Origin: Gammaproteobacteria bacterium
Lineage (GTDB): Bacteria; Pseudomonadota; Gammaproteobacteria; UBA4575
Reading direction: 5' to 3'
Assembly: GCA_965247265.1 (NCBI GenBank)
Contig: OZ252002.1
Span: forward strand, 1,962,565-2,026,564
DNA: 64,000 bases
In this document: positions 46,587 through 64,000 of the stretch, piece by piece
How the letters are laid out: every line of letters starts with the position of its first letter
How positions within the stretch are numbered: the stretch's first letter is position 1
Notes under the pieces: generated by a model
Told to the model about the DNA's origin: nothing
What the model saw: the letters and a program-made list of their open reading frames with translations, nothing else
The model's database searches: none
Translations under genes and position numbers: made by a program

Positions 46587-47078
46587 TTAATTAAGCACAT
46601 TCTTTTCCTCTGAGAAAATACAGTGCTTAATTTTTTTCCAAAAATTAAGATCTTCTTGTGTAAGGCGGTTTTCTAAATCACCTAGTATATTCTCATATAA
46701 GGCATAAATTTTATCTCCAATTTCGATACCTTTTGAAGTAATATGAATTTCAACCACGCGCCGATCATTGATCTGGCGTTTGCGTTCAATTAACTGCCTT
46801 TCTTCCAGTCCATCTAACAAACGAGTTATTGTAGTTGCGTCTGCATTCATCAAATTTGCTATCTTTGTAGGTGTATCAGCACGCTTAAGATAAATAATCT
46901 TCAGCACTAACCATTGATTAATGGAAAGATTAACACTCCGCAGTGGCTTAATGAGCTGACGCTTTGCCTCATTTACCACGCTCATACCAAGAAAAACTGT
47001 AGATACATATATCTCTAAACAACGTTTTTTAACGGGTAATTTACTTTCACGCTCTAATATGTTTACTGTTCTGTTCAT
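46587..47078 (-). CDS. MarR-family transcriptional regulator
   Basis: Winged HTH ...PTKIANLMNADATTITRLLDGLEERQLIERKRQINDRRVVEIHITSKG. Confidence 0.7.
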   Translation of the reverse strand: MNRTVNILERESKLPVKKRCLEIYVSTVFLGMSVVNEAKRQLIKPLRSVNLSINQWLVLKIIYLKRADTPTKIANLMNADATTITRLLDGLEERQLIERKRQINDRRVVEIHITSKGIEIGDKIYALYENILGDLENRLTQEDLNFWKKIKHCIFSEEKNVLN

Positions 47079-47261
47079 CTTTGTCCCTCTACTTTACGTA
47101 TTCAATGTCATAAAATTCAAATCAGCCCTTTCTCTCTAGTCATTGGCTATATTTATCATTTATTATAGTTGCAGCTGACAATTACCGATCCCAGTTTTTT
47201 ACGGTAATTAACGTGTTAAATATGAAATTACATCGCGCGCCTGGTTGAGCGCAAAAAATAC

Positions 47262-48882
47262 ATGAGCACAACAGATTCAATAGATCGAACAGGTGTGGAA
47301 CCAAGTGAAGATGAGATAAAAATCCAACTCACTTCAATTCTAGAAGATCCTGAATTCAAACGATCCCCAAAAATACAAATGTTTTTGGAATATGTTGTTG
47401 TAGAAACATTAGATAATAAGCAACAATATTTAAAAGCCTACGCCATTGCTGTAGCGGTATTTCAAAAAAGTGATGATTTTGACCCGCAGACTGACCCAAT
47501 TGTCCGCGTACAAGCTGTCCGATTACGGCGTATGCTACAGCAATTTTATTTGTCGTCAGGGCGCGATGATAAAGTGATCATAGAAATTCAAAAAGGCAGC
47601 TATATCCCAAAATTTTATTACCGTAATACTCAAAATCATCAAAAATCCATTTCGCCAGAATTTATAAAAGAAGGTTCATTCCCAAGCATTGCAATACTAA
47701 ACTTTAAAGACCTCAGCACTCACTTTGCGCATGAAAATTTTGTAGATGGAATCTCACAGGAAATATTCCATCAATAATCCAAATTTAAAGGGCTAATTGT
47801 TATTGCAAGAACTTCAATTAATGTTGATGAAAATAAATATTTAGCTACTAAAAACCTTCATAAAATTACAGATGTCCGCTATGTATTGAGTGGTAGTGTT
47901 CACATACTAGAGGATGCCATTCGTGTTTATGTAGAACTTGATGACACCTATACGCATACTAATGTTTGGACGCATACTTTTGATAAAAAGATGAGTGTAA
48001 GTAGCATAATTGCAATACAAGACGATATTGCACATCAGGCTGCTGCAGCCATTGCACAACCATATGGAGTAATAATCCGCAATGAACTCGCAAATTTAAA
48101 TCGTAAGTCTACAAATGACCTAACTGCATATGAACTTTACTTACACTACTATAAATGGCGCCTGACTTTATCACCAAAGGATCATTTGCTAGCACGCGAA
48201 TCACTGGAACAAGCTGTTCAATTAGATCAAGATTTTTCCGATGCATGGGCAGCGCTTGCAATGATCTATGCTGCAGAGCACTTTTTATCATGCAATATTG
48301 TGAAGCGAGATCGTGAAATCCAGCAACTCACTTTTGAAACAGCACGCAAGGCTTGTCAAAATCAGCCCAGAAAATGCTCGCGCGCACTACGCTTTATACT
48401 ATGCCGACCTCATGACCCGTGGGGCACAATCAAGTACAGCGCAAGCAGAAAAAGCCTTTAACCTAAATCCAAATGATTCGCTGTTACTGGCAGGATACGG
48501 AATTCGATTAGCATTCAGTGGGAAATGGAATAGAGGCTTAGAAATGATCGAGCATGCGATGATTTTGAACCCTGCCCATCCAGATTTTTTTCATATTCCC
48601 TTTGTCATTGATTTTTATCATCGCGGCGAACTTGATAACGCACTACGCGAAGCAAGAGAAATTGACATGCCAGACTTTTATTGGACTTATATGATATTAA
48701 CTGCCATCTATGCAGATATGAATGATTCAAACAAAGCGCAGGAAACAGCAAAACACTTATCCACGCTATATCCAGATATTGAGCACCATGCCCGAAGTGA
48801 ACTAGAGAAATGGCAATTGCCCACAGGCCTTATTGATAAAATTTTAAATGGGCTGAAAAAATCAGGCTTACAAATTACTTGA
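47262..48882 (+). pseudogene. CadC/ToxR-like winged-helix transcriptional activator with TolB_N-like and TPR domains; in-frame TAA at 47775-47777 plus a frameshift near 48313-48461
   Basis: wHTH ...PKIQMFLEYVVVE...RVQAVRLRRML. Reading continues in the same frame through TAA into ...LIVIARTS...VRYVLSGSV.... TPR-like C-terminus in a third ORF. Confidence 0.55.
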
Positions 48883-48925
48883 TTAAATTATTATAACCTT
48901 TTATTTATTAAGTAATTTATTAAAT

Positions 48926-48939
48926 TGGCGGAGAGGGAG
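48926..48939 (+). repeat. candidate att direct repeat TGGCGGAGAGGGAG (tRNA-Ser-like 3' end, reverse complement)
   Basis: 14/15 match with 57855-57868. The reverse complement CTCTCCGCCA equals the 3' end of enterobacterial tRNA-Ser. Confidence 0.4.
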
Positions 48940-49080
48940 TCCGTCATAGTCTAATCTAATACAACCCTATATAATCCAAAAAATAGCTGTATTACAGCAG
49001 TTAAACTAAGATTATAGTCTAATGCTGTCCGATTCAATATTCTTGAATCCGTATATAAGACGTATATAGGAACGTATATA

Positions 49081-50280
49081 GATGCCTAAGACGATTGAGC
49101 GTTTAAGCGCACTGAAGAAGGGTCCAAAAGTTAAAGAAAAGTGACTGGTACGCTGATGGAGACGGCCTGTATCTACAAATAAGCCTTTCTGGATCAAAGT
49201 CTTGTGTATTCGCTATGTGCTGCATGGGAAAGAGCATCGACATGGGCTTGCTCATTTGACACCATCGACTTATCAACGGCTCGAAAGCATGCCAAAGAAT
49301 GCAGAGGGCTTAAAAAAGAAGGCATTGACCCCATTCAGTTTAAAAGGGCGCGCAACGCTAAAACCGCATTAAAGCAAGCCAAGAGCAAAACTTTTAAAGA
49401 TTGCGCACTAGCATATATTGATGCGCATAAAGCAGGTTGGAAAAGCCGGAAACACGAATCCCAGTGGCGCAACACACTCGAAACCTACGCATATCCAGTT
49501 ATTGGAAATATATCTATCCAAAGCATTGATGTTGCGTTTGTACTAAAAGTACTTGAACCCATTTGGTATGAGAAAACTGAAACGGCAACACGAGTAAGGC
49601 AACGTATCGAGAATATTCTAGATTGGGCTACCGCACGCAGATACCGAACTGGTGAAAACCCTGCAAGATGGCGAGGTCATTTAGATAAACTCCTGCCAAA
49701 ACGCACAAAGATACAAAAAGTAAAGCATTTCAGTGCAATGCCGTATACAGAATTACCTAAGTATTATGCAAAGCTAAGAAAGAAAGACACCATTGCAGCA
49801 CAAGCATTAGCTTTTACTATCCTTACTGCTACGAGAATAAGCGAGTCAAGAAACGCTGCATGGAAAGAAATTAACCTGAAAACTAAAGAATGGAATATCC
49901 CAGATGTGCGCATGAAAGCGGGTCGACCCCATCGTATACCGTTATCAAAAGAAACTATTACAATATTAAAGAAGGCAAAAATACTTTCACCTGATCAACT
50001 TTTATTTGAGGGAAATATTTTAGGCAGACCAATAAGTGATTCATCCATTAGATCATTGTTGCAAGAAGACTATCCTGATGTAACGGTGCACGGATTTCGT
50101 TCTACTTTTCGCGATTGGTGTGCAGAAATGACTTCGTATCCACGAGAAGTAGCGGAAGCCGCCCTTGCTCACACTATAAAAGATGCAACAGAAAGAGCGT
50201 ATCAACGTGGTGATATATTTAGGAAACGACAACGGTTGATGAATGCATGGGCTAGTTATATATGCGGAGTTAAGGCATGA
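49081..50280 (+). pseudogene. int: P4-type tyrosine integrase with two N-terminal frameshifts
   Basis: MPKTIERLSALKKGPKVKEK | ...WYADGDGLYLQISLSGSKSCVF... | ...AKECRGLKKEGIDP...HGFRSTFRDW...LAH.... Confidence 0.65.
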
Positions 50281-51062
50281 GACTGATGGCAAAACTCCCA
50301 CTGCTGAAGTATTGGAAGCTTGAAGAAGTTTTTAAGAAGAATGAGGGTAAATATTTACTTGATCTTGATGACGAAGAATATAAAACATCAACTTCTGGCT
50401 TCAAAAATAAGCTCTTTCGCGCAATTGATTTAGAAGAAATAGAAACACACAAGTTTAAAAATGATGCTGCTGTTTACTTGCTTAAAGATGACGTTTATGA
50501 ATGGTTTTTTTCTATATACCGCGTAACACTTGACAATTTATTAGATTTACAAATGGGGTATTACACAGATGATAAACCTGATTACATAGCATTTTCTAAT
50601 GCGGCGCATAACCAGAGTGACCCACACAATGAAAGTGCTTTGAATATTCATACTGCATTTTGCTATTTAGTAGGAATACCTATAACTCGTGGTAAGTCAT
50701 TGTGGTCTAAAGAAGAGAAAGAGGAATTTGGTAAATTTAATGAATTTACAGATGGTCGAGAATTTATTTCTCCAAACAGAATAAAATTTATATCAGAAAA
50801 AACAAATATTCCTATGCCTGAAGAAATGATTATTGTGTTCGACGAATATGAGTTTTTGAAGGAAAATAACCCACAAAAAAGAAAACACCCTTTAAAAAAG
50901 TTTATACAAGAGAAGCGTAAAGAGATGTATCAGGAAATTGGGAAAGACCCTGATAAAGAAGCATTATGGAAACGATTTAAAAAGATTCAGACTGAAAATA
51001 ATTTACTTGAAAAGGTTTGGGATGATGTTTTTAGCTGGAAAACCCAAACACATTTATTATAA
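50277..51062 (+). CDS. hypothetical protein (261 aa), start overlaps the integrase stop (ATGA)
   Basis: AT-rich. Lys/Glu-rich. No recognisable domain. Confidence 0.35.
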   Translation: MRLMAKLPLLKYWKLEEVFKKNEGKYLLDLDDEEYKTSTSGFKNKLFRAIDLEEIETHKFKNDAAVYLLKDDVYEWFFSIYRVTLDNLLDLQMGYYTDDKPDYIAFSNAAHNQSDPHNESALNIHTAFCYLVGIPITRGKSLWSKEEKEEFGKFNEFTDGREFISPNRIKFISEKTNIPMPEEMIIVFDEYEFLKENNPQKRKHPLKKFIQEKRKEMYQEIGKDPDKEALWKRFKKIQTENNLLEKVWDDVFSWKTQTHLL

Positions 51063-51244
51063 AAGAAGTTCCATTTAAAAATTTTGATAGACTAGTAAGA
51101 GAAGTTAAAAAAATTACCCACCACCATAATATTTTCATTTTTTTTCATATATTTTCTTAGCCGTCCCTTAGCCGTCTTTAGCTGTAAATTTATTGTGGGA
51201 TAATCTCTCCGGTGGAGACAAACTTAATCCGATGGAGATCAAAA

Positions 51245-51517
51245 ATGGCGAATAATCCTGAAACTGGCTTTATACGTGTAAAGCATATAGTTGGCGACCC
51301 AAATGCAGAGCCACCAATACCCGCAATTACCCCTGTTTCAAAATCCACTTGGTGGGACGGTGTCAAAACAGGCCACTTCCCACAGCCTGTGAAACTTGGC
51401 GTTAATACTACAGCGTGGCGAGCTGAAGACATTCGGAAAAGGAGTTTAAAACAAGCTGGGTTGGATAATTCAAAAACAAGATGTTTAATGTCCGCTAACG
51501 ACCCAAAGCGGACATAG
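51245..51517 (+). CDS. alpA: AlpA-family phage regulatory protein (excisionase-like DNA-binding)
   Basis: ...ITPVSKSTWWDGVKTGHFPQPVKLGVNTTAWRAEDI.... The C-terminus is encoded by a REP-like element. Confidence 0.65.
   Translation: MANNPETGFIRVKHIVGDPNAEPPIPAITPVSKSTWWDGVKTGHFPQPVKLGVNTTAWRAEDIRKRSLKQAGLDNSKTRCLMSANDPKRT
51488..51515. repeat. REP-like palindrome, subfamily b (ATGTCCGCTAACGACCCAAAGCGGACAT)
   Basis: 9-bp perfect stem, 10-nt loop. Identical cores at 55196 and 56114. Confidence 0.6.
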
Positions 51518-51688
51518 GAACTAGTTCAAGACTTGGTTGGCCCAGTCTGAATTGGTTGATTCTTGTTGCGAGGTATTTTGTACAAATAAGGCGTACACTT
51601 CACATCCCTTTCATATCGTTTCTATCGAGTCTGTCGGCAATCCTGCCCACACCCTCTTGAGCGGTTATCAAACCTTTAGGAGGTTACT

Positions 51689-51970
51689 ATGGGCAATAAA
51701 CTTTACATCGGAAATTTACCGTACTCAGCAAATCAACAAACACTTCAGGACGCATTTGGCAAGTGTGGCACAGTCGATTCGGTTAATGTAATCATGGATC
51801 GTCAAACTGGTCAGAGCAAAGGCTTTGGTTTTGTCGAGATGTCGAGTAGTGCCGAGGCGCAAAAGGCTATCCAAGAAATCAATGGATCTAGCATTGACGG
51901 GCGCGAGGTAAAAGTCAATGAGGCAAAACCCAAAGAGAAGAGATCTGGCGGCGGTGGAAAGCGCTGGTAA
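51689..51970 (+). CDS. RRM-domain RNA-binding protein (93 aa)
   Basis: RNP-2 LYIGNL, RNP-1 KGFGFVEM, glycine-rich tail. Confidence 0.75.
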   Translation: MGNKLYIGNLPYSANQQTLQDAFGKCGTVDSVNVIMDRQTGQSKGFGFVEMSSSAEAQKAIQEINGSSIDGREVKVNEAKPKEKRSGGGGKRW

Positions 51971-52059
51971 GCACTATCCGCTTAACATGTGATGATTTTA
52001 AGACATCATATTCTATTCAGCTTCGAGCTAGTGCACGAAGTCTGTTTAAGTGAACACGC

Positions 52060-52326
52060 ATGACAGATGAACCCTCAGTGGTTCGTAAACAGTACGAGAT
52101 CGTATCGATCCTGCGAACAGTGTCACCGCCCGGTGCGGATGGCTCTGATTGGCACCGTTATGAGATTGCATATGGCACGAATATCATCAACGGTTACAAA
52201 CAAGGAAGTCTCGACGCCGTGACAACAGCAGTGGAAGTAAATGTCGCCCAATTAAACGAACGCCAACGGGGCAATTGTGGCCACGTTAACATTTGGCCGT
52301 CGTCGAAAAATAAACCCAGCAACTGA
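52060..52326 (+). CDS. hypothetical protein (88 aa)
   Basis: ORF followed by a REP-like element. Confidence 0.3.
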   Translation: MTDEPSVVRKQYEIVSILRTVSPPGADGSDWHRYEIAYGTNIINGYKQGSLDAVTTAVEVNVAQLNERQRGNCGHVNIWPSSKNKPSN

Positions 52327-52360
52327 CATTTCAGATCGCTGCCGACTGAGTGGTTATGAA

Positions 52361-52388
52361 TGACCGCTATTGGCCGAAAGCAGACAAA
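52361..52388. repeat. REP-like palindrome, subfamily a (TGACCGCTATTGGCCGAAAGCAGACA)
   Basis: Family consensus. Confidence 0.55.
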
Positions 52389-52504
52389 TCTAATCTTCAG
52401 GTAAATGTTCACTTCCTATACTGTTCAAATCACAAGTTGTGTTTTTTATTTATGTACACAATTGGGTCAATAAATTTGGACAGACCTATTAATTTGAAAA
52501 GTCA

Positions 52505-53008
52505 TTAGTTATTAATTATTAATTTAATTGTGACGGGCATTTTATTGTCGCCCGAAAAATATGACTTGACGGCGATACGAAATCTAGAAACATCTATACC
52601 AAGGTAAGTACCTTTTATACGTTTCATCTTTTCAAGTCCTTCAGTCGCCATGCGCTTTGCAACATCGTTAAATCCCTGGAATTTCTTAAGATGGGCGGCA
52701 GAGATCTGGATCAAGCCCTGTATAAACAACCCCGTTTCGGTTTGTCTTCCTGCTGCGACCCAGACTACTTCAAGTGCTTCATGCGCCTCCCACCAATAAC
52801 CGTAATTGAATAAATCGATACCATATAAATACTCATTACAAGATTGCCACTGCTTGTTTTCAAATGATGTGAGCTTTTCTAAAGGTTTCTCATATGAATG
52901 TCCATTTGGATCGCGGGTCGGATGCGGTGATTTTTTTGGAATAAAACGATATGGCGGAAATGGTCGGTCAGTGTAACGAGAGGTAGATTTTTTTACAGGT
53001 GACTTCAT
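52505..53008 (-). CDS. DUF309-domain protein
   Basis: ...LFNYGYWWEAHEALEVVW...GLIQISAAHL.... The true start is probably MKSPVKK; the longer ORF overlaps the upstream gene. Confidence 0.45.
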   Translation of the reverse strand: MKSPVKKSTSRYTDRPFPPYRFIPKKSPHPTRDPNGHSYEKPLEKLTSFENKQWQSCNEYLYGIDLFNYGYWWEAHEALEVVWVAAGRQTETGLFIQGLIQISAAHLKKFQGFNDVAKRMATEGLEKMKRIKGTYLGIDVSRFRIAVKSYFSGDNKMPVTIKLIINN

Positions 53009-53022
53009 TTTTGCAGGATAAA

Positions 53023-54702
53023 TTAATTCAGGTGCCAATAAGCAGGTAGTGGCTGTAGACGAGGATCGTCTACTGGTGCACCGACAGTAAAATGGTACAA
53101 ACTCTGCCAACTGTGATCACTAATGCCAAGTACCTCATGCATGGCATCATCAAAAAAGCAGCCGATCCCTGTAGATCGAATTCCAGCTGCTTCGGCTTCC
53201 AGGTACAGGATTTGTCCTATCAATCCCGTTTCCCAAAACAGACGCGTATAAAATAATGCACCGTGTTGTTCAAGACTGGCATCGAACTCCGCCAGCATCC
53301 CCAGTGCAAAGGCACCGTCTGCAGCAATATCTTGATGACAACTAATTATTTTTGCGACCTCACATGCATCGGCTTCTTGTAGCATATACAGAGGGAGAAT
53401 CTCTGGACAACCTTCGGGTTTTTTCCAACATAGCTCAGAACGCAATGACTTTTTTAAAGAAGGTTCGTGACTAGGATCGCGAACGAGCATATACAATCCA
53501 GTTGGTAAATCTTCTACACGGTGAACGAAAATTGCGAGTGAAACGGTTGCCTGCCAAGGCAGTACTTCTATTATATTTTTTCCCATATGCGGAGAGGCAT
53601 GTGCCATCATTCTATAAAAGGTATCTTTACTAATCGTGTTACGCCCATCCATCGCCAGTGCGCTTCGACGTTCCCTTATAATTTTTCGCGCTGATATTTG
53701 CCTGTCTTCAACAAATTCAATTTTATTATTATGTTCTATTAGTGAATACAATTTGTGATCCAATGGACAATGACTATCGAAACGGCATGCTTCAGCAACG
53801 CGCTCAATGATCGGCCAATCATGATGATCATTACTTAATGTATTTGGACAACCTTCAAATTCGATTGTTTTAAGCCGTTCAAGTAATGCAGTAGAGAGAT
53901 TAACGATGTGATCTGTTAGTGTTATGCCTTCATCAAACGGGAAAATTGCGAGCAGGCAATCTGGATGTTCCGCCTCGATGCCTTCTTGTTGGCGCAGCCC
54001 TAATAGCGTTTCTAGTTCGTCATCAGTTACAGAGTTTATCAACTTGGTTTTCCAACCGAGTGCCGCTGCGGCAAAAGTAACTGCACCAATCGCATGTCCA
54101 ACATCGTGATGACAATAACGAAAGGCACGTTCACCATATTTCCATGATTCACGCCAATAGATCGAGGTCAGTGAAATTAACAGGGAATCTGTTGGTAGAT
54201 TCTGGCTTATGGCATTCCATTCCGTATTCGTCAGGATGGCTCGATTTTCTAATGCATGTTCTTGGGTAGAATAATGGTAGACAGCTGTTGCTTCACTTAA
54301 ATCTTCTATGGGACCAGCTATTAAATACGCTTCAGTGGGATGGAGATTGCCGCTTGAAGGATTAACACGTAAGGACCAGCGATTCCCGCCCGCCTGTTTC
54401 CAGGCAGAGATTGCGAGGCTCTCGTATAAGAGATGACTGATTGAATCCCTATTTATTGGGGCCACAGGTTCCTTACATGTATTAAATAATGAGTCATAGG
54501 TTGGTGTTTCAGTGATCTGCGGATGGTCAAGTGGAATTGTTAATGATGGGTTGTAACGCCGGAATGGATCGGGTTGACTCTTCCAGTCCAGGTAGCCCAA
54601 TGAACGTGAGTAGCGTTGAAGTTGATGCTTAGTTTGATTGTGATACTCGTATACGAGATCAAGTTTAGTGGTGTTACGATGATTCTTGGACATTTTTGTC
54701 AA
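53023..54702 (-). CDS. SagB/ThcOx-family dehydrogenase (tandem nitroreductase-like domains, 559 aa)
   Basis: N-terminal YHxxTKH signature (VYEYHNQTKHQLQRY) and two nitroreductase-like halves. Confidence 0.55.
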   Translation of the reverse strand: MTKMSKNHRNTTKLDLVYEYHNQTKHQLQRYSRSLGYLDWKSQPDPFRRYNPSLTIPLDHPQITETPTYDSLFNTCKEPVAPINRDSISHLLYESLAISAWKQAGGNRWSLRVNPSSGNLHPTEAYLIAGPIEDLSEATAVYHYSTQEHALENRAILTNTEWNAISQNLPTDSLLISLTSIYWRESWKYGERAFRYCHHDVGHAIGAVTFAAAALGWKTKLINSVTDDELETLLGLRQQEGIEAEHPDCLLAIFPFDEGITLTDHIVNLSTALLERLKTIEFEGCPNTLSNDHHDWPIIERVAEACRFDSHCPLDHKLYSLIEHNNKIEFVEDRQISARKIIRERRSALAMDGRNTISKDTFYRMMAHASPHMGKNIIEVLPWQATVSLAIFVHRVEDLPTGLYMLVRDPSHEPSLKKSLRSELCWKKPEGCPEILPLYMLQEADACEVAKIISCHQDIAADGAFALGMLAEFDASLEQHGALFYTRLFWETGLIGQILYLEAEAAGIRSTGIGCFFDDAMHEVLGISDHSWQSLYHFTVGAPVDDPRLQPLPAYWHLN

Positions 54703-54849
54703 GCCGATTATTTAGACAGTACGCATTCAAATACTGCATTCGACATCACTAATATACTCTAGTCAAGTGACCACTTTTCAGCCGAAAGCAGGCGTTTTAT
54801 AATTACATTTTGTGCAATATAAAAATGCACAGGCCCTTCGTAGCAGAGG

Positions 54850-55164
54850 GTGTTTATGATCGACACAGAAAAGCTTTCTCGAATCTCAGATTATCTAAAA
54901 TCTATTTGGCTATCAGATAATGTTGAATACGAATATCTGACAAGCAGAGAATTACATAAATTTACATTTACAGGACCTGGCCACAAACAAGCTTTTTTAG
55001 TAAGCGATACTTATCTCAGTGATCACAGAATAGACGTAATACTAACTGATATGGATACTCGGCATGTTGAAGACATATTAATGAGTAGAAATAGTCACAA
55101 TGAGTATTATCTGGGTTACAACTCAAGCGGTGCAGTTACATTTTCCGTAGTAGAGAAAGAGTGA
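54850..55164 (+). CDS. hypothetical protein (104 aa)
   Basis: ORF in a small-gene array. No domain recognised. Confidence 0.3.
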   Translation: MFMIDTEKLSRISDYLKSIWLSDNVEYEYLTSRELHKFTFTGPGHKQAFLVSDTYLSDHRIDVILTDMDTRHVEDILMSRNSHNEYYLGYNSSGAVTFSVVEKE

Positions 55165-55195
55165 GGCCGTGGGAAATGAGGAAGAAGTAAAATGT

Positions 55196-55223
55196 ATAAC
55201 CGCTAACGACCCAAAGCGGACAT
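55196..55223. repeat. REP-like palindrome, subfamily b
   Basis: ATAACCGCTAACGACCCAAAGCGGACAT. Confidence 0.55.
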
Positions 55224-55253
55224 TATAGTTAAAAAATTTATTTTAAAATTCCT

Positions 55254-55544
55254 ATGAATGAAATAAATAAGTTGTGGGAAGAATTTCAGAATATACCATT
55301 CCCGAAGGACTTAGCAGGAGAAGAAATTGACGGAGTTGATTTAATGTCGATTGATACTTTTGCTGCTAGTTGTATAAGTACTTATATAGAGAATCGAGGT
55401 AAATTAGATAATCATAGGCACGCTGTATTACGAGAATGCATGTCTGATTTAGATAAAGTAATAAATAAAATCAGAGAGGAAGGAGAAAAATCGTTCTCGC
55501 TTCTATATAAATTAGGGACAATGATTCTAGATGAGCTTAAATGA
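55254..55544 (+). CDS. hypothetical protein (96 aa); the TGA stop lies inside a REP-like element
   Basis: ...DELK-TGA-CCGCAATTGGCCGAAAGCAGACAC. Confidence 0.3.
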   Translation: MNEINKLWEEFQNIPFPKDLAGEEIDGVDLMSIDTFAASCISTYIENRGKLDNHRHAVLRECMSDLDKVINKIREEGEKSFSLLYKLGTMILDELK

Positions 55545-55568
55545 CCGCAATTGGCCGAAAGCAGACAC
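55542..55568. repeat. REP-like palindrome, subfamily a
   Basis: TGACCGCAATTGGCCGAAAGCAGACAC. Confidence 0.55.
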
Positions 55569-55597
55569 ACGCTTTAAAAATTATGGTTAGATGCTAG

Positions 55598-56116
55598 ATG
55601 GGTAATATTTTATACGCAGCATATGGTTCAAATCTTCACCCAATACGATTATCGGAACGTGTTCCATCAGCAAAATTCTTAGGAAAAGGGATTCTTAATA
55701 AAAAGGTTCTTCGATTTCATAAACTCAGCAAAGATGGTTCCGGGAAATGCAATATTGTTAATGACGACAAACAGAACATCTATCTTGCAGTATATAAAAT
55801 AGATCCATCTGAAAAACTGTTATTGGATAATATTGAAGGCGTTGGATATGGCTACCGAACTGAAGAAGTTAAGGTAGCTGGTTTTGGTACATGTTTCACC
55901 TACATTGCGCAGGAATCTCATATAGTCGACTCACTCAACCCTTACACGTGGTATAAGGAGTTGGTCCTTGTCGGATGTATAAATTTGGAGTTCCCACCAG
56001 ATTATATTGAACGAATTCGTGATGTTGAGGCTGATGTTGATATAGATAAGCAAAGACATTCAAAACACATGCAGTTGGTCGCGAATGCAAAAAATAATCA
56101 TATAGATTTTTTATGA
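55598..56116 (+). CDS. gamma-glutamyl cyclotransferase-like (AIG2/GGCT fold) protein
   Basis: N-terminus LYAAYGSNLHPIRL matches the YGSNL signature. The stop TGA is the first three bases of a REP-like element. Confidence 0.45.
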   Translation: MGNILYAAYGSNLHPIRLSERVPSAKFLGKGILNKKVLRFHKLSKDGSGKCNIVNDDKQNIYLAVYKIDPSEKLLLDNIEGVGYGYRTEEVKVAGFGTCFTYIAQESHIVDSLNPYTWYKELVLVGCINLEFPPDYIERIRDVEADVDIDKQRHSKHMQLVANAKNNHIDFL

Positions 56117-56140
56117 CCGCTAACGACCCAAAGCGGACAT
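56114..56140. repeat. REP-like palindrome, subfamily b
   Basis: TGACCGCTAACGACCCAAAGCGGACAT. Confidence 0.55.
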
Positions 56141-56214
56141 TTTATAATTGAAAAGTCGTTTCTTTAAGCCAGTAAAGTAGCTTAATTATCTTCTGCATTA
56201 AATACCGCTGTGAC

Positions 56215-56463
56215 GTGCTGATAAGAGAGTGTTACGAGAGTTTGTATTACCTACCCAAACAAAAGCGTATCATTTTAATTGTGGATGCTATACGCAGACA
56301 AAGAAGAAAGTGTAAAGTGCAAAGTTATTCGCCTACATTTGAATTATGGTTCAACAAACTCATTGCAGTGATGGATCAGCTAGGAGCTGCCGAGTACTCG
56401 TATGAAACGATCAGGAAAGCGGCACACAATCCTTTACTAACTTATTACAGTGACGGTTACTGA
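56215..56463 (+). CDS. hypothetical protein (82 aa)
   Basis: ORF only. Confidence 0.25.
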   Translation: MLIRECYESLYYLPKQKRIILIVDAIRRQRRKCKVQSYSPTFELWFNKLIAVMDQLGAAEYSYETIRKAAHNPLLTYYSDGY

Positions 56464-56465
56464 AC

Positions 56466-56663
56466 GTGATGAAACAATTACAGAATTGCAGAGCGTGCAA
56501 ACACCATGAAAAAATCTTGAACAGCACGCATATTAACTGCGCCAGCGTCAAAGCCAGCCCTACACCCATGACGCGTGCAAGCAATTCAAATTATTGGAAC
56601 TGGCCAACCGATTTTGATCCGATCTGGTTACAAAGTTGCAATGATTTTAAAAAAGGACGTTAA
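56466..56663 (+). CDS. hypothetical Cys-rich small protein (65 aa)
   Basis: CRACKHH...C...C pattern. Confidence 0.25.
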   Translation: MMKQLQNCRACKHHEKILNSTHINCASVKASPTPMTRASNSNYWNWPTDFDPIWLQSCNDFKKGR

Positions 56664-56690
56664 TTTAGTTTAAAAAAATAGCAAGAAAAT

Positions 56691-57498
56691 GGCACTAGTT
56701 GAGACGGTACTGACAAGTTAACTTTCATGCGTCTGCGAGTTCCAGTAAATACATATTCTATAATGCCGTAACGCAATTCCAAGACGCAAAGGCGTTCTCT
56801 CTAAATATTCGGTAATGCTTTGCTGATACTAAATGACGACCAAGATTGAACAGATTGTATACCGCTGCATGAGCATTTAAAAATCGTTGCGCTTGTTGCA
56901 TCGATTTGAATCGCCGCATGCCTCGCTCTCGAACGCGTGTCGGTTGACGTGAAACTTCGGCTCGGTTATTCGCATACTGAGTGGTATCGTGAATGGACTC
57001 TGGAATGAGTTCTCGGTGCGCGACACCATAACTTCTCAATTTATCCGTCACGATCTTTCTGGGCTCACTGCCATGCTTTTTTATTAGGCGCTTGAAAAAA
57101 TGCTTGGCTGCTTTACCATCGCGCCGTGCCTGTAAAAATACATCGACAACTTCGCCATCCTGGTCCACTGCACGCCACAAGTATTTCTGTTGTCCATGAA
57201 TCTTAACGAAAACTTCATCTATATAAAGTGTATCGCCATACCCTCGGTGTCGACGCTTCAATTGCCTGGCGTATTGAGGACCAAATTTGTTACACCACAA
57301 ACGAATGGACTCATAGCTGACTTCAACGCCTCGTTCAGTTAACAGATCTTCAATATCGCGATGACTTACATTGAATCGATAGTAAAGCCATACAGCATAT
57401 TGAATAATTTCAGAAGGAAAGCGATGACGTTTATATGAACTGATTGATGTATTCATCTAGACATTGTCGCGCAGATGCACTTAACTTGTCAGTACCGT
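56691..57498 (-). mobile_element. IS6-family insertion sequence (IS26-like)
   Basis: Transposase flanked by inverted repeats ACGGTACTGACAAGTTAA (56704-56721) and TTAACTTGTCAGTACCGT (57481-57498). The left flank GGCACTAGTTGAG resembles the IS26 terminus. Confidence 0.7.
56758..57456 (-). CDS. IS6-family DDE transposase (232 aa)
   Basis: MNTSISSYKRHRFPSEIIQYAVWLYYRFNVSHRDIEDLL...LYIDEVFVKIHGQQKYLWRAVDQDG.... Confidence 0.8.
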   Translation of the reverse strand: MNTSISSYKRHRFPSEIIQYAVWLYYRFNVSHRDIEDLLTERGVEVSYESIRLWCNKFGPQYARQLKRRHRGYGDTLYIDEVFVKIHGQQKYLWRAVDQDGEVVDVFLQARRDGKAAKHFFKRLIKKHGSEPRKIVTDKLRSYGVAHRELIPESIHDTTQYANNRAEVSRQPTRVRERGMRRFKSMQQAQRFLNAHAAVYNLFNLGRHLVSAKHYRIFRENAFASWNCVTAL

Positions 57499-57854
57499 AA
57501 GCAGACATTAAAAAAATATTTATAAAAAAATATAAAAATATATTTTGAGGGTGACACTAAAGCCTAGATTTAGCAGACCCCGATCGGATGCACTCCCACC
57601 TTTCTAAATAGACACAACTCTAGATTAAAAACTCCACCACATGCGCAAACCCATGAAGTCGAAATCCCCAGCAGTGGGAAGATCGAATTGCGCGAGCAAA
57701 TCATACTTATATATAAGTAGCCGACCACATGTGCAGATCAATGTTAAAATGCTGACAAAGACTCAGAAATTAAAAGAGACTTGTATATAGATACGTATAT
57801 AGAGATTATCTATGAAGTATATATTTATATATATCATACAGTTGTAGTTGTATC

Positions 57855-57868
57855 TGGCGGAGAGTGAG
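57855..57868 (+). repeat. candidate att direct repeat TGGCGGAGAGTGAG (partner of 48926-48939)
   Basis: 14/15 identity. Preceded at 57781-57810 by two ACGTATATAG repeats that also occur at 49051-49082. Confidence 0.4.
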
Positions 57869-58100
57869 GGATTCGATACATCTCGCACTATTTAGCCCCT
57901 AATATGTTCAATCACTTATATTAGCTTCCTCAGAGCATAGTTGTATTTGATGGGGCTGGATGGGGGGTAAACGCGACAGATTTCGTGACACCTCAATAAG
58001 CACTTACTACCCATATATTAGATTCTGAATATCACTACCTCAGAAATATAATTTCCACAACGAGGACATTTCATGAACGGCTATGATAGCTTGTCAGATC

Positions 58101-58685
58101 ATGTGTGGCCGCTTTTCACTAGATCATTATCCTAAGTCCATCATCGATGCATTAGATGTGGGCCCTGTTCAATTTTCCCCTCGAACACAAGTCTATCCGA
58201 CCCAGCAAGTCGATGTCATTTTCCGTAGCGATTACGGTAACGAAGTTGCTGGAATGACATGGGGTTGGGAACGACCATTCACCAAAAGACCATTAATTAA
58301 TGCCCGTGGATTCGATGCATGGGAAAAACGTACATGGTCTAAAGCCATGCGTGAACGTCGTTGCATAATTCCTACAAGTGGATTCTTTGAGTGGAATGAG
58401 AATCAACCAAAAGGTAATCGGGACCGTTACAGAATAAATCCAACGTTTGATGATGGCTTTGCATTTGGTGGATTGTATGAAATCAATTCCGAATCAGGCG
58501 AAATGTTTACATCTATTCTTACAACAGATCCAAATAAAAAGATGGCAAAGATCCATCATCGTATGCCTGTAATCCTAGATAATCATGAATATGACAATTG
58601 GTTTAAGTCAGATGATCGAGAATTGATTAATCATCTAATGAGCCCTGCAAATGAAAAATGGATAGAAGTAGTAAAAGGTATATGA
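58101..58685 (+). CDS. yedK: SOS-response-associated peptidase (SRAP/YedK, abasic-site processing)
   Basis: MCGRFSL... N-terminus with catalytic Cys2. About 195 aa. Confidence 0.75.
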   Translation: MCGRFSLDHYPKSIIDALDVGPVQFSPRTQVYPTQQVDVIFRSDYGNEVAGMTWGWERPFTKRPLINARGFDAWEKRTWSKAMRERRCIIPTSGFFEWNENQPKGNRDRYRINPTFDDGFAFGGLYEINSESGEMFTSILTTDPNKKMAKIHHRMPVILDNHEYDNWFKSDDRELINHLMSPANEKWIEVVKGI

Positions 58686-58940
58686 ACTATTTCTGTTTGC
58701 AGTCCCTTATTGAGAATATGTAATGGATATTGGCCAGCTTATAACATTAGTCTTAATGCTCATGTTTGCAGCTTATATTTGTTTAGGAAAAAGTAATGAA
58801 TATAGAAACGCAATTATTAGTCTATTTAATATTGTTGATGTTATCTGACACCGTAATTCCATTACCAATTACAGCGAGCATATTATTTTTTGTCGTATTA
58901 AAGCGTCCTGAATGGTTTAGAGATTTATATCATCAAGTAT

Positions 58941-59390
58941 ATGAATAAGTTCTTGCCACTCATTTTAATTGTATGCGCAACGATATATTTTTATCCGATT
59001 ACTTCCTTAGCGCAAAAATTCGATCCTGATAGCGAAGAAGGCAAAGCCTTTAATAATGAATCTAGTGAATTTGTTACCTGCTCCAGCTTTTATGGAGTGC
59101 TTAATGAAGCCGCAAAAAGATCCGAGAGTGAAGATGCGGCTGAATTAGCTGTCAAGTCAGTACATTTCAGTGAAGAGGCTTTTGATTATGCTTTACTTTA
59201 TGCTGAGACAACGCGTAGTGAAGATCTAGCAATGAAAGTTACGCTCGCAAGACTTAAGTTGGAAATAGATGATATGAAAAAAGAAATTGAAGGAGATTTT
59301 AGCAACACACCTATTCTAATGGCCAAATATCTTGAACCATGCAAGGAAAAAATGGAACACCCTACTGCTGTTATTGAAAAGTGGCAATAA
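58941..59390 (+). CDS. secreted hypothetical protein (149 aa)
   Basis: Signal peptide MNKFLPLILIVCATIYFYPITSLA. Confidence 0.35.
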   Translation: MNKFLPLILIVCATIYFYPITSLAQKFDPDSEEGKAFNNESSEFVTCSSFYGVLNEAAKRSESEDAAELAVKSVHFSEEAFDYALLYAETTRSEDLAMKVTLARLKLEIDDMKKEIEGDFSNTPILMAKYLEPCKEKMEHPTAVIEKWQ

Positions 59391-59496
59391 ATAACATAAA
59401 TTTAAACATATTTTATTTTGGATTAGCACTATGCGTCTAATCCCACTCATTTTAATTTATTTGCAACATCTACGTTGTGATTTAGCGAGGTAGCTT

Positions 59497-59682
59497 ATGT
59501 GCAATTACGATCTAATTGAATATTATCAACTATTACAAGAAGACTCTGAAAAAATTGATAAAGAATTATCAAAGCTAGACGATATAATTAGTGAAATACA
59601 TCGCGATAATTCTTTGGAAACAAGTTACGCAGAGAAACTAACAGAAACGGCCAGATTACAAACAAAATTCCAGGAGTCGTAA
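59497..59682 (+). CDS. small hypothetical protein (61 aa)
   Basis: Coiled-coil-like. Immediately upstream of the VOC gene. Confidence 0.25.
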   Translation: MCNYDLIEYYQLLQEDSEKIDKELSKLDDIISEIHRDNSLETSYAEKLTETARLQTKFQES

Positions 59683-59684
59683 TC

Positions 59685-60062
59685 ATGCCTAATACTAAAA
59701 GCTATGACATTTTATCAATTAACGCTGTAACACTTGCTACTTCTAATATGATGCAAGCAATAAAGTTTTACAAGAAAATTGGTTTTGTATTGTTTCAAGG
59801 TGGTATAGAGGAAATGTTTACTAGTTTTAAAGTCGGGGAATCACAAATACTAAACATAACAATAGAAAGACCAGATTTTAGAGGTTTATGGTGGGGTCGT
59901 ATAATTTTTTATGTCTCTAATGTTGATATTTTATATCAGCATATTATTAAGCATGGATTAAATCCAGATTTTGCTCCTCGAGATGCTGCGTGGAATGAAC
60001 GCTATTTCCATATTACCGATCCAGATGGTCATGAACTAAGTTTTGCCCAACGAATCACTTAA
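59685..60062 (+). CDS. VOC-family (glyoxalase/bleomycin-resistance fold) protein
   Basis: ...FHITDPDGHELSF... C-terminal VOC signature. Confidence 0.55.
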   Translation: MPNTKSYDILSINAVTLATSNMMQAIKFYKKIGFVLFQGGIEEMFTSFKVGESQILNITIERPDFRGLWWGRIIFYVSNVDILYQHIIKHGLNPDFAPRDAAWNERYFHITDPDGHELSFAQRIT

Positions 60063-60434
60063 TAATTACCTTAATTGTTATGAAAATATTGATAAACCTA
60101 TGCGCATCATCCAATCCTTTAACGACCTTGACCTATTAGAACAACTGTAACCGTACTGCACCGATTGCGGTCACTGTGGGGATGTGGTTGATGAATACTA
60201 CTTAACATAAAATGATTTATTAATAACTGACTTGCTGCACAAGCTTAAATGCAATCAGTGTGGCAGCAAGGATGTAACCTTCAAGCTTGTGTCCAATGAA
60301 GCAATGGCGTTTCTGGATAAGTCTAATGTTGCATTCTTTTCGGATAATTTGAGGACGGCATGAATGCCCGCTTTGGGTCGTAAGCGGTCATTCATTATTC
60401 CTACTAGCTTTTATTTATTACGTCGAACCGTGAT

Positions 60435-60940
60435 TCACTCACAGTTCAATGTTCCCCCCGCAACATTGAGGAAGGCACTCAAAGTCGTGTTATTTACACA
60501 GATGAGATTACCTGCTGCAATGTTCTTCTGGACAAGCGCTTTTGCATTCCTATTTACTGTGATCCTGCCGCTTAAGGTCTCATTTTCAATGACGTTCGCG
60601 GGTTGCATGCTCAAGCACAACGAGATCCCCTGTGAACACGGTGTTGGCGATGACATTAGCAACGGCCGATGCCTTCCTGCCCATCAGTACGAACTACCCG
60701 GATCCTGCCACCAACCTTATTGTTCAGCAGTAAAACGTTATCAGTGTCTCTTATAGTAAGATTTCCCTTGATGGTGCTTGATATAATGGCACAAGAACTT
60801 TCAAGGCTAACTAATAAGTTATTTTCAAATGTTTCATTTTCAAGCACGCCGTCGCCACAACCCTCTGCCATGGCGGCACTTGATGTAATTACCAATAACA
60901 AAGAGACCGCGAAATTTACTATGAGCTGCTTTACTTTCAT
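60435..60940 (-). pseudogene. secreted repeat (beta-helix-like) protein, frameshifted near 60660
   Basis: Signal peptide MKVKQLIVNFAVSLLLVITSSAAMA. Two ORFs with parallel repeat text (LENETFENNLLVSL... / IENETLSGRITVN...). Confidence 0.4.
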
Positions 60941-61330
60941 TATTATTCTCCTCAGCTAACGGAAACTCTAGCTAAATAAGCTAAAAAAGTTCCAGATCAT
61001 AATACCAAAAAACAAAAGCGCTCCACATACGAATGTATAAATAAACAACCTATCAGCAAGTAAGAGTGGGGCTTTTTGTCCCTTCAAGATGATTGATTCG
61101 ATTTTGATCTTTTCTCGGTCTGTAGTCTCTCTCATTCTGATTATTCCCAATCCTTATATTCAGTAAAAAAACACCACTCACACATTAAGATCTTAAGGAA
61201 AAAATATCGAACAATTATTGATTTAGATCAATATAAATTTGAACCCTAAAGCGAGGGAGATAAAACTGTGGCAGCAGAGAAAAAATAAGTTATAAAACTG
61301 ATCTAAAGAAGCGTCTTTTAAATCATAGAA

Positions 61331-61356
61331 TGACCGCTTTTGGCCGAAAGCGGACA
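61331..61356. repeat. REP-like palindrome, subfamily a (TGACCGCTTTTGGCCGAAAGCGGACAT)
   Basis: Closest to the family consensus. Confidence 0.55.
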
Positions 61357-61364
61357 TTGCGTAA

Positions 61365-61643
61365 CTAATTTTGTATTAACCTTTCACTAAACTCCACCGA
61401 CACCTCCTCATACAACCAAGCATCTTGAGGTTCCTTCCATTCCTTAACTATCGTCTTCCTTCTTTCATATTCTCTATATTCAATAAGTCCCTCTTCCTTT
61501 AGCTTTGCGTAAATGGCTCTTAATGATAAGCATGCATCTGCTACATGCACCACATCTACTGGCTCCCATTCCACATATGGCTTCTTCATTATCTGATCAG
61601 CCTTGATAATCTCTTCTTTTATATTGGCGTGGATTTCAATCAA
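61365..61643 (-). CDS. hypothetical protein (92 aa)
   Basis: ORF only. Acidic. Confidence 0.3.
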   Translation of the reverse strand: MIEIHANIKEEIIKADQIMKKPYVEWEPVDVVHVADACLSLRAIYAKLKEEGLIEYREYERRKTIVKEWKEPQDAWLYEEVSVEFSERLIQN

Positions 61644-62004
61644 AATTGATCCTTCTTGATGTTAAAATGGCCTATATCGACTAACCCCTACCCTTACCCT
61701 TACTTACCCATATATAAGCGATTTTCCCCTCTGAAAGCCGCATAGAATAGGGCCGAAATTCAAGTTTTTAAGGGTCTTAGGTATCTATAAATAGCTAGAA
61801 ACTTGGTCTTATTATTCAGGTCTAAAGTCATACCTATTGTTTGGTTAGCTCCATTACCAATGGATGGGTTATAGAAGTTATTCAGTAGGTGCTCGCCATC
61901 GTAGGCTTGTGTGGTTTCCCCTATCACGCACACGCTCTTAAGCTGGCGGTGGCGGGTTTAACTAAAAGGCCTATTATATTTTTTAGTCATAAGTATAGAA
62001 ATAT

Positions 62005-62643
62005 TCAAAATCGTGGCGGATTCTTTTTCCAATATAAAATAAGAACAAAACCAAATAACATTCCACCTAAGTGTGCAAAATGCGCAATGCCTTCAGCTGT
62101 TCCAGTAATTCCAAACCATAATTCAATTGCGCCAAAGACTATGACAAACCATCTTGCCTCCATTGGTATAGGTGGGAAAATGAGAATGATTCGCTCTCGT
62201 GGGTAAAACATGCCAAAAGCTAGCAACAAACCAAAAACACCACCCGAAGCACCTACCGTTGGATAGATATTTTCACCCTGAGAAGAAACCAATAACTGCA
62301 TTAAGCCCGCACCCACTACACAGACAAAATAATAAACAGCGAAAACTTTAGAACCCCATAAATTTTCAATGCGTGAGCCAAACATCCACAAGGCATACAT
62401 GTTCAACAACAAATGCATTACACCACCATGCAAAAATGCATACGTCACCAATTGAGAAATGCCAAACTGTGGTTGTGTTGTCGCTATGTTTGGGCTGGGC
62501 GAAAGATCCAACGGCCACAATGCCAATTCTGCAATCATGGCATTACCCATATACATTTGAAGCAAGAAAGTTACTCCAATCACAATTAGCAGTGACTTGA
62601 CGACGGGTGTAACCGAGGCATATGGGATGGAAAAACCTGTCAC
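62005..62643 (-). CDS. rhomboid-family intramembrane serine protease
   Basis: ...GASGGVFGLLLAF... (catalytic Ser) and ...AHLGGMLFG... (catalytic His). Six TM segments. Confidence 0.75.
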   Translation of the reverse strand: MTGFSIPYASVTPVVKSLLIVIGVTFLLQMYMGNAMIAELALWPLDLSPSPNIATTQPQFGISQLVTYAFLHGGVMHLLLNMYALWMFGSRIENLWGSKVFAVYYFVCVVGAGLMQLLVSSQGENIYPTVGASGGVFGLLLAFGMFYPRERIILIFPPIPMEARWFVIVFGAIELWFGITGTAEGIAHFAHLGGMLFGFVLILYWKKNPPRF

Positions 62644-62733
62644 ACGTATCCTTACTTATAAATCATAATAGTTATATACACTCACTCATAAATTTTATAT
62701 TACATGAGTTTTCATATAAATATGAACTCTAAT

Positions 62734-63597
62734 CTACAAAGCCTTCTCAATAACTCCAGCAATTTCTTTAAAAGACATATCATCCAATGCAGCAACAGTT
62801 GCTTCAGCAACACCCACATTGCTTTCGTTCCCGCAATCGTTATCTGCAGCAATGATAAATTCTATGTTTGGATGTCTTTCTCTTAAATGTCTAGCAACAG
62901 ATTCTAAGTTACCCGCATCAAAGGCAACCGCAACCACATCATTTGTTAATTCATGAATGGTTGCACCTGTTGCAAAGCCTTCGCAGACATATAAAACATT
63001 CTTTAGTTTCCCCAACAGACAATAAGATCCTTTCTTCTTTGTTCCTGGTAGAAACTTCTTGCTTCCATCGGGTTTAATAAACTGAAGTCCTGTCAAAGCT
63101 CCATCTCGATACAAAGGAATGATTAATTCAAAACCATTTGAACGTATACCGTGTGGTTTAATTCTCTTATCTCTTAAATAGCGATGCAGCCCACTTTCTG
63201 CTGCAGATGTTTCCCATATTCTTTTTGCTTCCTTTACTGCTTGCTGGTGCTTTCGTTCTTGTTCTGTTTCTAATCGTTTTTGTTCTTGCTTGATACGTTC
63301 ATGGACCACAGGGTCATATGTTTTTGTTTTGGTTTTATCATTGCCAAACCATCGATGTTTTACATCTGGCTCCTTCCATGACCCAAACGCACCAAAGGGA
63401 TTAGGATGTAAGCTAAACACATACCACCCATTCAGTGTCCCTGGTTTATCACTCTCTATATGGAATCTATGAATCTTCTGATCCGCAATAGGCATACCAT
63501 TAAATGGAATTCCTGCACGGTGCATCTCATCTAGAAATTTTTGTTCAGGACTCATCAAGCTGCTCGGCAATTGCCATTTGCCATTCCTTTGTTTCAT
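62734..63597 (-). CDS. TOPRIM-domain DNA primase (phage/plasmid TraC/P4-alpha-like)
   Basis: ...VLYVCEGFATGATIHEL...AVAFDAGNL...IIAADND... TOPRIM acidic motifs. Confidence 0.6.
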   Translation of the reverse strand: MKQRNGKWQLPSSLMSPEQKFLDEMHRAGIPFNGMPIADQKIHRFHIESDKPGTLNGWYVFSLHPNPFGAFGSWKEPDVKHRWFGNDKTKTKTYDPVVHERIKQEQKRLETEQERKHQQAVKEAKRIWETSAAESGLHRYLRDKRIKPHGIRSNGFELIIPLYRDGALTGLQFIKPDGSKKFLPGTKKKGSYCLLGKLKNVLYVCEGFATGATIHELTNDVVAVAFDAGNLESVARHLRERHPNIEFIIAADNDCGNESNVGVAEATVAALDDMSFKEIAGVIEKAL

Positions 63598-63772: not shown

Positions 63773-64000
63773 AGAAATTCCTCATGCAGAAATAGGCCTC
63801 TGCAGCAACAGCAGCGACCAATCAATGTATTGATTGAATAATTGCCGAGAACTCGGCTGATAAAGAAAAACCTCCCTCTCTTACCCATATAGAACGAAAT
63901 GTTTGCAAGCTTTTGAATGTACTAATAAAGCTGAATTTCACGCTTGTTGATTCCACTCATGTACAAAGGAATATAAAGAAATTCTCCTGTACGAATATTG

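Follow-up and report, generated by a model that had tools for sequence, protein, structure and literature searches.

Genomic islands at tRNA genes, as defined by the Islander approach (Hudson, Lau and Williams 2015, PMC4383910), contain an internal tyrosine integrase gene; the 3' end of a tRNA gene marks one boundary, and a direct copy of this end marks the other. The attachment site of the element (attP) supplies the displaced part of the tRNA, and tandem arrays and damaged fragments are documented in this class (PMC4383910). Another described group carries integrases of the P4/CP4-57 type together with AlpA, as in E. coli P4 at leuX and CP4-57 at ssrA; these integrases have a set of three domains and act on the 3' end of a small RNA gene, with arm-type repeats on either side of a short core and a gene of the AlpA family downstream. 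In both P4 and CP4-57, the integrase gene (int) adjoins its target and has the same transcriptional direction. Here we analysed a 64,000-nucleotide (nt) stretch of contig OZ252002.1 from a gammaproteobacterial genome, referred to as the window, in which a preliminary description had proposed a P4-like island at 48926-57868. Our results make it very probable that this interval is a fossil integrative island, which entered the 3' end of the gene for tRNA-Ser(UGA) through site-specific recombination by a P4/CP4-57-type tyrosine integrase.

The locus has the features named above for both classes, with the following differences. Its bounds are 14-nt and 22-nt fragments of a tRNA gene of which no intact copy lies in the window, and its integrase gene is a pseudogene. 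As to the Islander criteria, an internal integrase gene and an uninterrupted site in a relative were found, and an intact bounding tRNA gene was not; the locus falls outside the strict definition only because the site was further rearranged. As the bounds are fragments, an Islander-type search anchored on the intact tDNAs in the window would miss the island. The base-precise annotation given here (attL, attR, arm sites, int pseudogene, cargo and an IS6-family insertion sequence) thus covers a stretch that standard island finders would overlook owing to the absence of an intact tRNA gene. Unlike those of P4 and CP4-57, the core in the window and in related loci (35) is inverted relative to int, and int lies at the far end. 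None of the alpha, sid, delta, psu and cos functions of P4 was recognized among the open reading frames (ORFs) of the island with Pfam, NCBIfam and PHROGs. With no P4 replication or capsid-redirection genes found, the term P4-like applies to the integrase/AlpA module only; the island is not a P4 satellite but a standard tRNA-integrated genomic island. It is biologically ordinary and dead, and the most interesting by-product of its analysis is a family-wide view of attachment sites, including a layout with an inverted core and int far from the tRNA.

Attachment sites and the empty site in a relative

The motif TGGCGGAGAG[G/T]GAG occurs in the window only at 48926 and 57855, and the following sites were assigned there.

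48926-48939, + strand: attL core, the reverse complement of the last 14 nt of tRNA-Ser(UGA), consisting of TGGCGGA and the 7-nt overlap GAGGGAG
57855-57876, - strand: attR core and tRNA remnant, with TGGCGGA and the overlap GAGTGAG at 57855-57868, then eight tRNA bases, GGATTCGA

The left 14-mer (TGGCGGAGAGGGAG, 48926-48939) and the right 14-mer (TGGCGGAGAGTGAG, 57855-57868), both read on the + strand, are the sole matches in the 64 kb with up to one mismatch, where 0.01 would be expected from shuffled sequences. They are identical at 13 of 14 positions and have unlike bases on both sides (t and c before, T and G after). The 14/15-nt direct repeat of the preliminary description is therefore confirmed as a pair in the same orientation, but its length and identity have to be replaced by the measured 13/14. 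The likeness to the 3' end of tRNA-Ser was borne out, as the 14-mer equals the 3'-terminal 14 nt of tRNA-Ser. Directly after the attL core, at 48940-48945, the element half-site TCCGTC corresponds to an inverted GGCGGA with one mismatch. At attR, identity with the tRNA runs for 22 nt (TGGCGGAGAGTGAGGGATTCGA), matching tRNA-Ser positions 69-90 at up to 95% identity. This remnant comprises part of the T-loop, the 3' strand of the T-stem, the 3' strand of the acceptor stem and GCCA, and breaks off in the T-loop at 57876/57877. No tRNA body was detected after it by ARAGORN or Rfam. We also agree that the island has no intact tRNA-Ser: none was called between 48 and 59 kb by ARAGORN or by Rfam, which at a permissive threshold of E ≤ 10 returned chance matches only. 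The only tRNAs called by ARAGORN in the window were tRNA-Cys (1307-1380) and tRNA-Gly (28313-28388). The GC content of the interval (0.35-0.43) is barely unlike that of its surroundings.

The left flank contains a TPR gene (47262-48882), a pseudogene with an in-frame stop near 47775 and a frameshift near 48350-48377. The gene falls in a 90% cluster with an intact 539-aa member (P0256) that is carried on the contig L089 of a close relative, and this was the route to the empty site; a homologue search with the C-terminal fragment of the gene gave nothing. L089 is 96.7% identical to 46905-48939 of the window, and the similarity ends at the last base of the left 14-mer. Beyond this point, L089 carries an intact minus-strand tRNA-Ser(UGA) and, after it, Bax1-I, YajQ, DUF423, MOSC and seryl-tRNA synthetase (SerRS). 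The junction in L089, which joins the left flank straight to the intact tRNA gene, is the empty site. The search in relatives called for by the preliminary description was thus successful, and the end of the empty site at the repeat supports its reading of a site-specific island. The junctions are compared below.

attB (L089): left ...tatcagat; core TGGCGGAGAGGGAG; right ggattcgaaccc
attL (window): left ...tattaaat; core TGGCGGAGAGGGAG; right tccgtcatag
attR (window): left ...gttgtatc; core TGGCGGAGAGTGAG; right ggattcgatac

The three align in the way that an attachment site and its two products should.

Integrase pseudogene and arm-type repeats

The integrase gene and the repeats just inside the two ends of the island are as follows.

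49050-49081, + strand: P' arm-type sites, direct repeats CGTATATAA / CGTATATAG / CGTATATAG at 49050, 49061 and 49073, ending directly before the ATG of int (49082)
49082-50280, + strand: tyrosine integrase pseudogene of the P4/CP4-57 type, identified with Pfam and by tblastn with P0002
57782-57802, + strand: P arm-type sites, direct repeats TGTATATAG / CGTATATAG, 52 nt left of the attR core

Pfam recognized Phage_int_M (2.1e-32), Phage_integrase (2.5e-10) and, in part, Arm-DNA-bind_3 (5.8e-4) in the integrase ORF, the match to the arm domain being partial due to frameshifts. When the intact 398-aa homologue P0002 (82% identical) was used as a tblastn query, its residues 1-11 and 43-55 matched frame 2, residues 12-42 frame 3 and residues 57-395 frame 1. 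The frameshifted P4-type integrase proposed at the start of the island was thereby verified, with three frameshifts, all in the arm-binding domain and within the first ~56 codons. The catalytic part is an open ORF of 358 codons (49204-50280). The combination of Arm-DNA-bind_3 (DUF4102), Phage_int_M and the catalytic domain is found in the window ORF and in every close homologue. The NCBIfam domain model PRK09692 scored 133 bits, under its cutoff of 434 bits. The ORF shows the motifs ATRISESR, MKAGRPHR, HGFRSTFRDW and AYQRGD, which are also conserved among the aligned homologues; they may contain the catalytic R, K, HxxR, H/W and Y.

Exact copies of CGTATATAG are found in the window only at 49061, 49073 and 57794, and copies with one mismatch at 49050 and 57782. 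All lie on the + strand with a spacing of 11-12 nt. Arm-like repeats are therefore present inside both ends as first described, three on the left and two on the right rather than two at each end. The same layout of the P' arm, with element-specific motifs, was found in L001, L006, L007, L019, L067 and L081, loci from related genomes. The motif is CCGTACATC in L007, GTGGGTAG in L019, AAGTTAGGG in L067, GATGGGTAGG in L081 and CGTATATAG in the window and L006, where CGTATATAGGAACGTATATAG stands at the position equivalent to the P arm of the window. Within each element one motif is used at both ends, immediately ahead of int at one and 45-75 nt from the attR core at the other, and arm motifs agree better between the two ends of one element than between different elements. 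Since the motif changes between elements and yet matches between ends, the ACGTATATAG repeats behave as arm-type integrase sites, in agreement with the initial proposal; the support comes from these sequence comparisons, in which they look as such sites should.

Related loci and an attachment-site model

A metagenome scan by alignment of 25 homologues of the integrase gave 80 loci. Among the tRNAs in these loci, 25 of 29 were tRNA-Ser. Two layouts were recognized. In the first (19 loci), int is preceded on the same strand by the tRNA, whose end lies 130-210 nt away. In the second (35 loci, including the window, L001, L002 and L007), TGGCGGA-N7-TCCGCC is present about 150-240 nt upstream of int, a motif that equals the reverse complement of the tRNA 3' end plus an inverted GGCGGA half-site. 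Five loci of the second layout, L007, L019, L049, L067 and L081, include the other end of the element on the same contig, and in each an intact tRNA-Ser lies on the complementary strand 4-8 kb downstream; it starts with the identical 14-mer and continues with GGATTCGAACCC. The islands of these five two-ended elements measure 4.3-8.4 kb. The boundary of identity on the right is always 14 nt, and on the left it may reach a copy of the downstream hairpin of the tRNA (L007 and L081). The nearest relatives of the window integrase (L006, L002, L001 and L007) all share the architecture of the window. A distal int with the tRNA on the minus strand at the right end is thus the regular architecture of the clade and no oddity.

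Two of these loci are particularly close to the island. L007 (OJHI01000003.1) has the same order of an attL core, arm repeats, int, about 7 kb of genes, arm repeats and a complement-strand tRNA-Ser(UGA) with the identical 14-mer, in an island of 8.3 kb. It differs in that its integrase and tRNA are intact, its arm motif is CCGTACATC instead of CGTATATAG, and a copy of the tRNA downstream hairpin is also duplicated. L006 (GCA_041576975.1, JBFGJY010000063.1) is a sister element whose integrase is 80% identical in DNA and 83% in protein (representative P0003) and is likewise broken near the N-terminus. It shares the CGTATATAG arm repeats at both ends, the 14-mer at attR and a truncated tRNA-Ser, and differs in its unrelated cargo (photolyase, DAO, SDR and Usp), the loss of the attL core, a tRNA remnant of 59 nt rather than 22 nt, and its flanks. 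We considered whether the islands of the window and L006 descend from one insertion and rejected this, as their flanks and cargo have nothing in common and their integrase lesions differ.

Taking these patterns as a guide, we infer a core in which half-sites of the GGCGGA type would enclose a 7-bp overlap with the sequence of the acceptor-stem 3' strand. In the live element, the N-terminal domain of the integrase would bind the tandem arm repeats (CGTATATAG here) just upstream of int (P') and about 50-75 bp from the core on its other side (P), and the core-binding and catalytic domains would bind the inverted GGCGGA / TCCGCC half-sites. With the overlap being the acceptor-stem 3' strand, that of each element would fit the tRNA-Ser of its host, and N7 would differ from one host tRNA-Ser to another for this reason. 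Strand exchange across the overlap would place int at the tRNA-distal end and leave a 14-nt direct repeat of CCA, the discriminator base, the acceptor strand and three T-stem bases. AlpA would be the likely excision factor.

The two layouts raise the possibility, put forward here tentatively, that one integrase family uses the same tRNA-Ser 3' end in both polarities, with about 19 loci int-proximal and about 35, including the window, int-distal. In the latter, the attP core would be a perfect half-site palindrome (GGCGGA-N7-TCCGCC) with the overlap reverse-complemented, resulting in reversed entry and a distal int. A neighbour-joining tree of the integrases was poorly resolved and had the two layouts interspersed, which hints that they may have been interconverted repeatedly. 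If so, the family would provide a natural series on how overlap asymmetry alone sets the direction of integration, and on the co-evolution of overlaps with the acceptor stems of different tRNA-Ser isoacceptors. The comparative set, made up of 35 attL cores and of six elements whose arm motifs are paired, yields a testable attachment-site model of the clade, and the model could help in the design of integration vectors that target tRNA-Ser.

Decay of the island

An insertion sequence (IS) lies between the cargo and the P arm.

56706-57496, - strand: IS6-family insertion sequence of 791 bp, transposase gene at 56758-57456 (NF033587, 218.8 bits; cutoff 125)

Its terminal inverted repeats are perfect over 16 bp (GGTACTGACAAGTTAA). 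No 8-bp target duplication was found, the sequences at the two ends being GTTGAGAC and GTAAGCAG. A missing duplication is common after cointegrate or deletion events of the IS6 type. In L087, a relative with 99% identity, the same cargo and right flank are present without 57497-57905 (409 bp). The deletion starts exactly at the IS6 end (7764-7766 of L087 against 57496-57906 of the window) and removes the P arm, the attR core and the tRNA remnant; from the position of its breakpoint, this is plainly to be read as a secondary adjacent deletion of the IS6 type. The preliminary description had held that relatives with the same gene content and no repeats would speak against an island. L087, having lost the right repeat, fits that wording to the letter; as a deletion next to the IS6 element, it does not argue against the insertion. 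Upstream of the attL of the related element in L002, three IS6-type terminal repeats (GGTACTGACAA(G/A)TTAA) occur at 6560-6800 with no transposase between them, and these may be a miniature inverted-repeat transposable element from the same IS as that of the window.

The overlaps at the two ends differ at the central base, GAGGGAG at attL and GAGTGAG at attR. With three frameshifts in int, unequal overlaps, an IS6 element inside and 22 nt of tRNA left, the copy in the window looks immobilized; with its integrase broken and its overlaps unequal, it falls short of a functional excisable element. A palindrome resembling repetitive extragenic palindromes (REP-like), ATGTCCGCT-loop-AGCGGACAT, is found in intergenic positions at 51480-51516, 52358-52386, 55200-55223, 56104-56140, 60363-60396 and 61329-61358. 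It also occurs in L006, L087 and L088, and metagenome contigs tend to break there. The presence of copies of this host hairpin inside and outside the island, and in relatives, argues for long residence.

Origin of the repeats and fate of the tRNA gene

A much simpler account of the locus would be that the 14-mers are a chance or unrelated repeat near a stray integrase pseudogene, with no discrete inserted unit. The repeat is indeed short and imperfect (13/14), an intact tRNA is absent at the island, and the GC content hardly sets the interval apart. Such a pair would, however, be expected by chance only 0.01 times, the arm repeats are paired between the ends, and five intact elements display the same two-ended layout. 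The explanation is ruled out above all by the core motif, which is kept at a conserved distance from int in 35 related loci, by the similarity to L089, which ends exactly at the repeat, and by the comparison of the junctions, and we give it practically no chance.

For the missing body of the tRNA, we consider it probable that a second element inserted in tandem at the same tRNA through a crossover in the T-loop, with a regenerated tRNA-Ser(UGA) now lying beyond the window. In that event, tRNA-Ser(UGA) and the native Bax1-I, YajQ and SerRS genes would follow beyond the right end of the window, and the last 22-23 nt of the tRNA would equal TGGCGGAGAG(G/T)GAGGGATTCGA(A) in + strand orientation. 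The region 57877-64000 of the window shared no sequence with the native flank of L089, and the DNA to the right of the remnant is, by this comparison, a non-native flank. The source genome still encodes orthologues of Bax1-I and DUF423 (P0272 and P0282; 2,764,221-bp contig). The unlike right flank and the survival of the native orthologues together point to an insertion of at least 15 kb at the tRNA. In more distant relatives, the same tRNA-Ser(UGA) has a different, 324-aa integrase 146 nt from its 3' end (949-2156 in L095 and 473-1332 in L096). Compared with that of L089, the tRNA-Ser(UGA) of L095 and L096 differs in the variable arm and is identical in the 5' half, which suggests that the element with this integrase supplied the 3' half via a crossover in the anticodon loop. 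The 59-nt remnant of L006 ends in the anticodon stem and is identical to the 3' part of the intact tRNA-Ser(UGA) in L095. By the established wobble rules, UCA codons cannot be read without tRNA-Ser(UGA), and the genome must therefore still have an intact copy. Crossovers in the T-loop/T-stem and in the anticodon loop are two standard sublocations of integrases, and 125 cases of tandem arrays at tRNA genes have been reported (PMC4383910). Taking into account the standard crossover site, the documented arrays, the integrase at the tRNA in L095 and L096 and the expected indispensability of the tRNA, the tandem insertion is the most economical explanation. A second element of the same integrase family was also considered and rejected, as both polarities leave fragments of 14 nt and not 22 nt; L047, the only locus with an int-proximal tRNA that has both ends on the contig, has a repeat of 14 nt.

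Alternatively, a later deletion or rearrangement, possibly mediated by IS6, may have taken the 5' two-thirds of the tRNA and the native right flank, with no second element and a copy of the tRNA elsewhere. We regard this as unlikely. Deletion adjacent to IS6 has been active at the locus, as L087 lacks the sequence exactly from the IS end; the lack of an IS6 target duplication suggests an earlier IS-mediated rearrangement; and neither an integrase nor another mobility gene was found in 57877-62802 or in its continuation in L087. On the other hand, the breakpoint at 57876/57877 does not adjoin the IS end but lies at a distance of 380 bp, and it falls on one canonical crossover site in the T-loop, as the break of L006 at the anticodon stem falls on the other. 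Loss of the only tRNA-Ser(UGA) should be lethal by the wobble rules, with no second copy known, and Bax1-I and DUF423 are still in the genome. Several points also weigh against the island and tandem insertion as we have described them. The 7-bp overlap and the half-sites were assigned from patterns in the letters and not by cleavage mapping, and a later mutation, instead of a heterology between attP and attB, may account for the unlike bases (G and T) of the overlaps. The window contains neither an intact tRNA-Ser nor a second integrase gene, and the tandem part is deduced rather than observed. To the right of the island in L087, rhomboid, methyltransferase and flavin-reductase genes follow, and 8 kb of this DNA contained no mobility gene. 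Methyltransferase genes of the L087 type have unrelated, IS-rich neighbours in other relatives, so that the right flank is not clearly an island. The locus marks tRNA-Ser(UGA) as an integration hotspot in this bacterial group, used by at least two integrase families and here probably occupied by a tandem array of at least 15 kb.

Cargo genes and other features of the window

The gene content proposed for the island (AlpA, small cargo genes, SagB-like/DUF309 and IS6) was reproduced with Pfam and NCBIfam. Between int and the IS6 element are the following genes, with the cargo block spanning 51689-56663.

50277-51062, + strand: 261-aa ORF overlapping the stop codon of int; no match in Pfam, NCBIfam, PHROGs or PADLOC
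51212-51517, + strand: AlpA-family small DNA-binding protein (Pfam Phage_AlpA, 24.6 bits; cutoff 21)
51689-51970, + strand: RRM RNA-binding protein, cargo
52060-52326, + strand: 88-aa ORF, cargo
52505-53110, - strand: DUF309 protein, cargo
53023-54702, - strand: SagB-family dehydrogenase-like protein, cargo (TIGR03605, 110.8 bits; cutoff 78.4)
54850-55164 and 55254-55544, + strand: small ORFs, cargo
55598-56116, + strand: AIG2-like gamma-glutamyl cyclotransferase, cargo
56215-56463 and 56466-56663, + strand: small ORFs, cargo

In the place of the 261-aa ORF, L001 has a non-homologous ORF. The AlpA-family gene, presumed to encode an excisionase or regulator, probably starts at the ATG at 51245, and its 3' end runs into a REP-like hairpin. 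The SagB-family protein (559 aa) has two stretches of nitroreductase fold, and its gene overlaps that of the DUF309 protein by 88 nt; near this pair (52505-54702), no recognizable precursor peptide or cyclodehydratase was found. None of the cargo genes matched the defence models of PADLOC.

Elsewhere in the window, a block of 52-69% GC at 9000-25000, in a genome of ~38% GC, looks like a recent acquisition from a high-GC donor. It contains an ORF of 2787 aa (16042-24405, minus strand) with at least 17 fibronectin type III repeats, flanked by mobile-element debris: a P4-type integrase remnant (14726-15691), fragments of UvrD-helicase and AAA_15/AAA_21 genes (10345-13334) and an IS3-type transposase (24816-25724). 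Near tRNA-Cys (1307-1380), the region 2112-5116 on the minus strand has 53-56% GC and encodes a myo-inositol-1-phosphate synthase and a fused NTP-transferase/CDP-alcohol phosphatidyltransferase, a pairing that is used in the synthesis of di-myo-inositol-phosphate; it has the look of foreign DNA beside a tRNA gene. In tblastx, an integrase-like remnant similar to the integrases of L095 and L096 was seen at ~1511-1678. A lambda-type integrase gene with Arm-DNA-bind_1 and Phage_integrase domains (27034-28185, + strand) lies 127 nt from tRNA-Gly (28313-28388, - strand), and the pair (27034-28388) probably marks the end of another island.

A Toprim ORF outside the island, at 62734-63597, matches phage primases (phrog_2249) over their N-terminal third. 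The final 22 codons of this ORF recur in a 53-aa ORF of the relatives L087 and L088, and in both of these, methyltransferase and flavin-reductase genes occur instead. The shared tail and the different genes beyond it indicate a further insertion or replacement from 62803 on (breakpoint 62802/62803). The best homologue of the Toprim protein was 45% identical.

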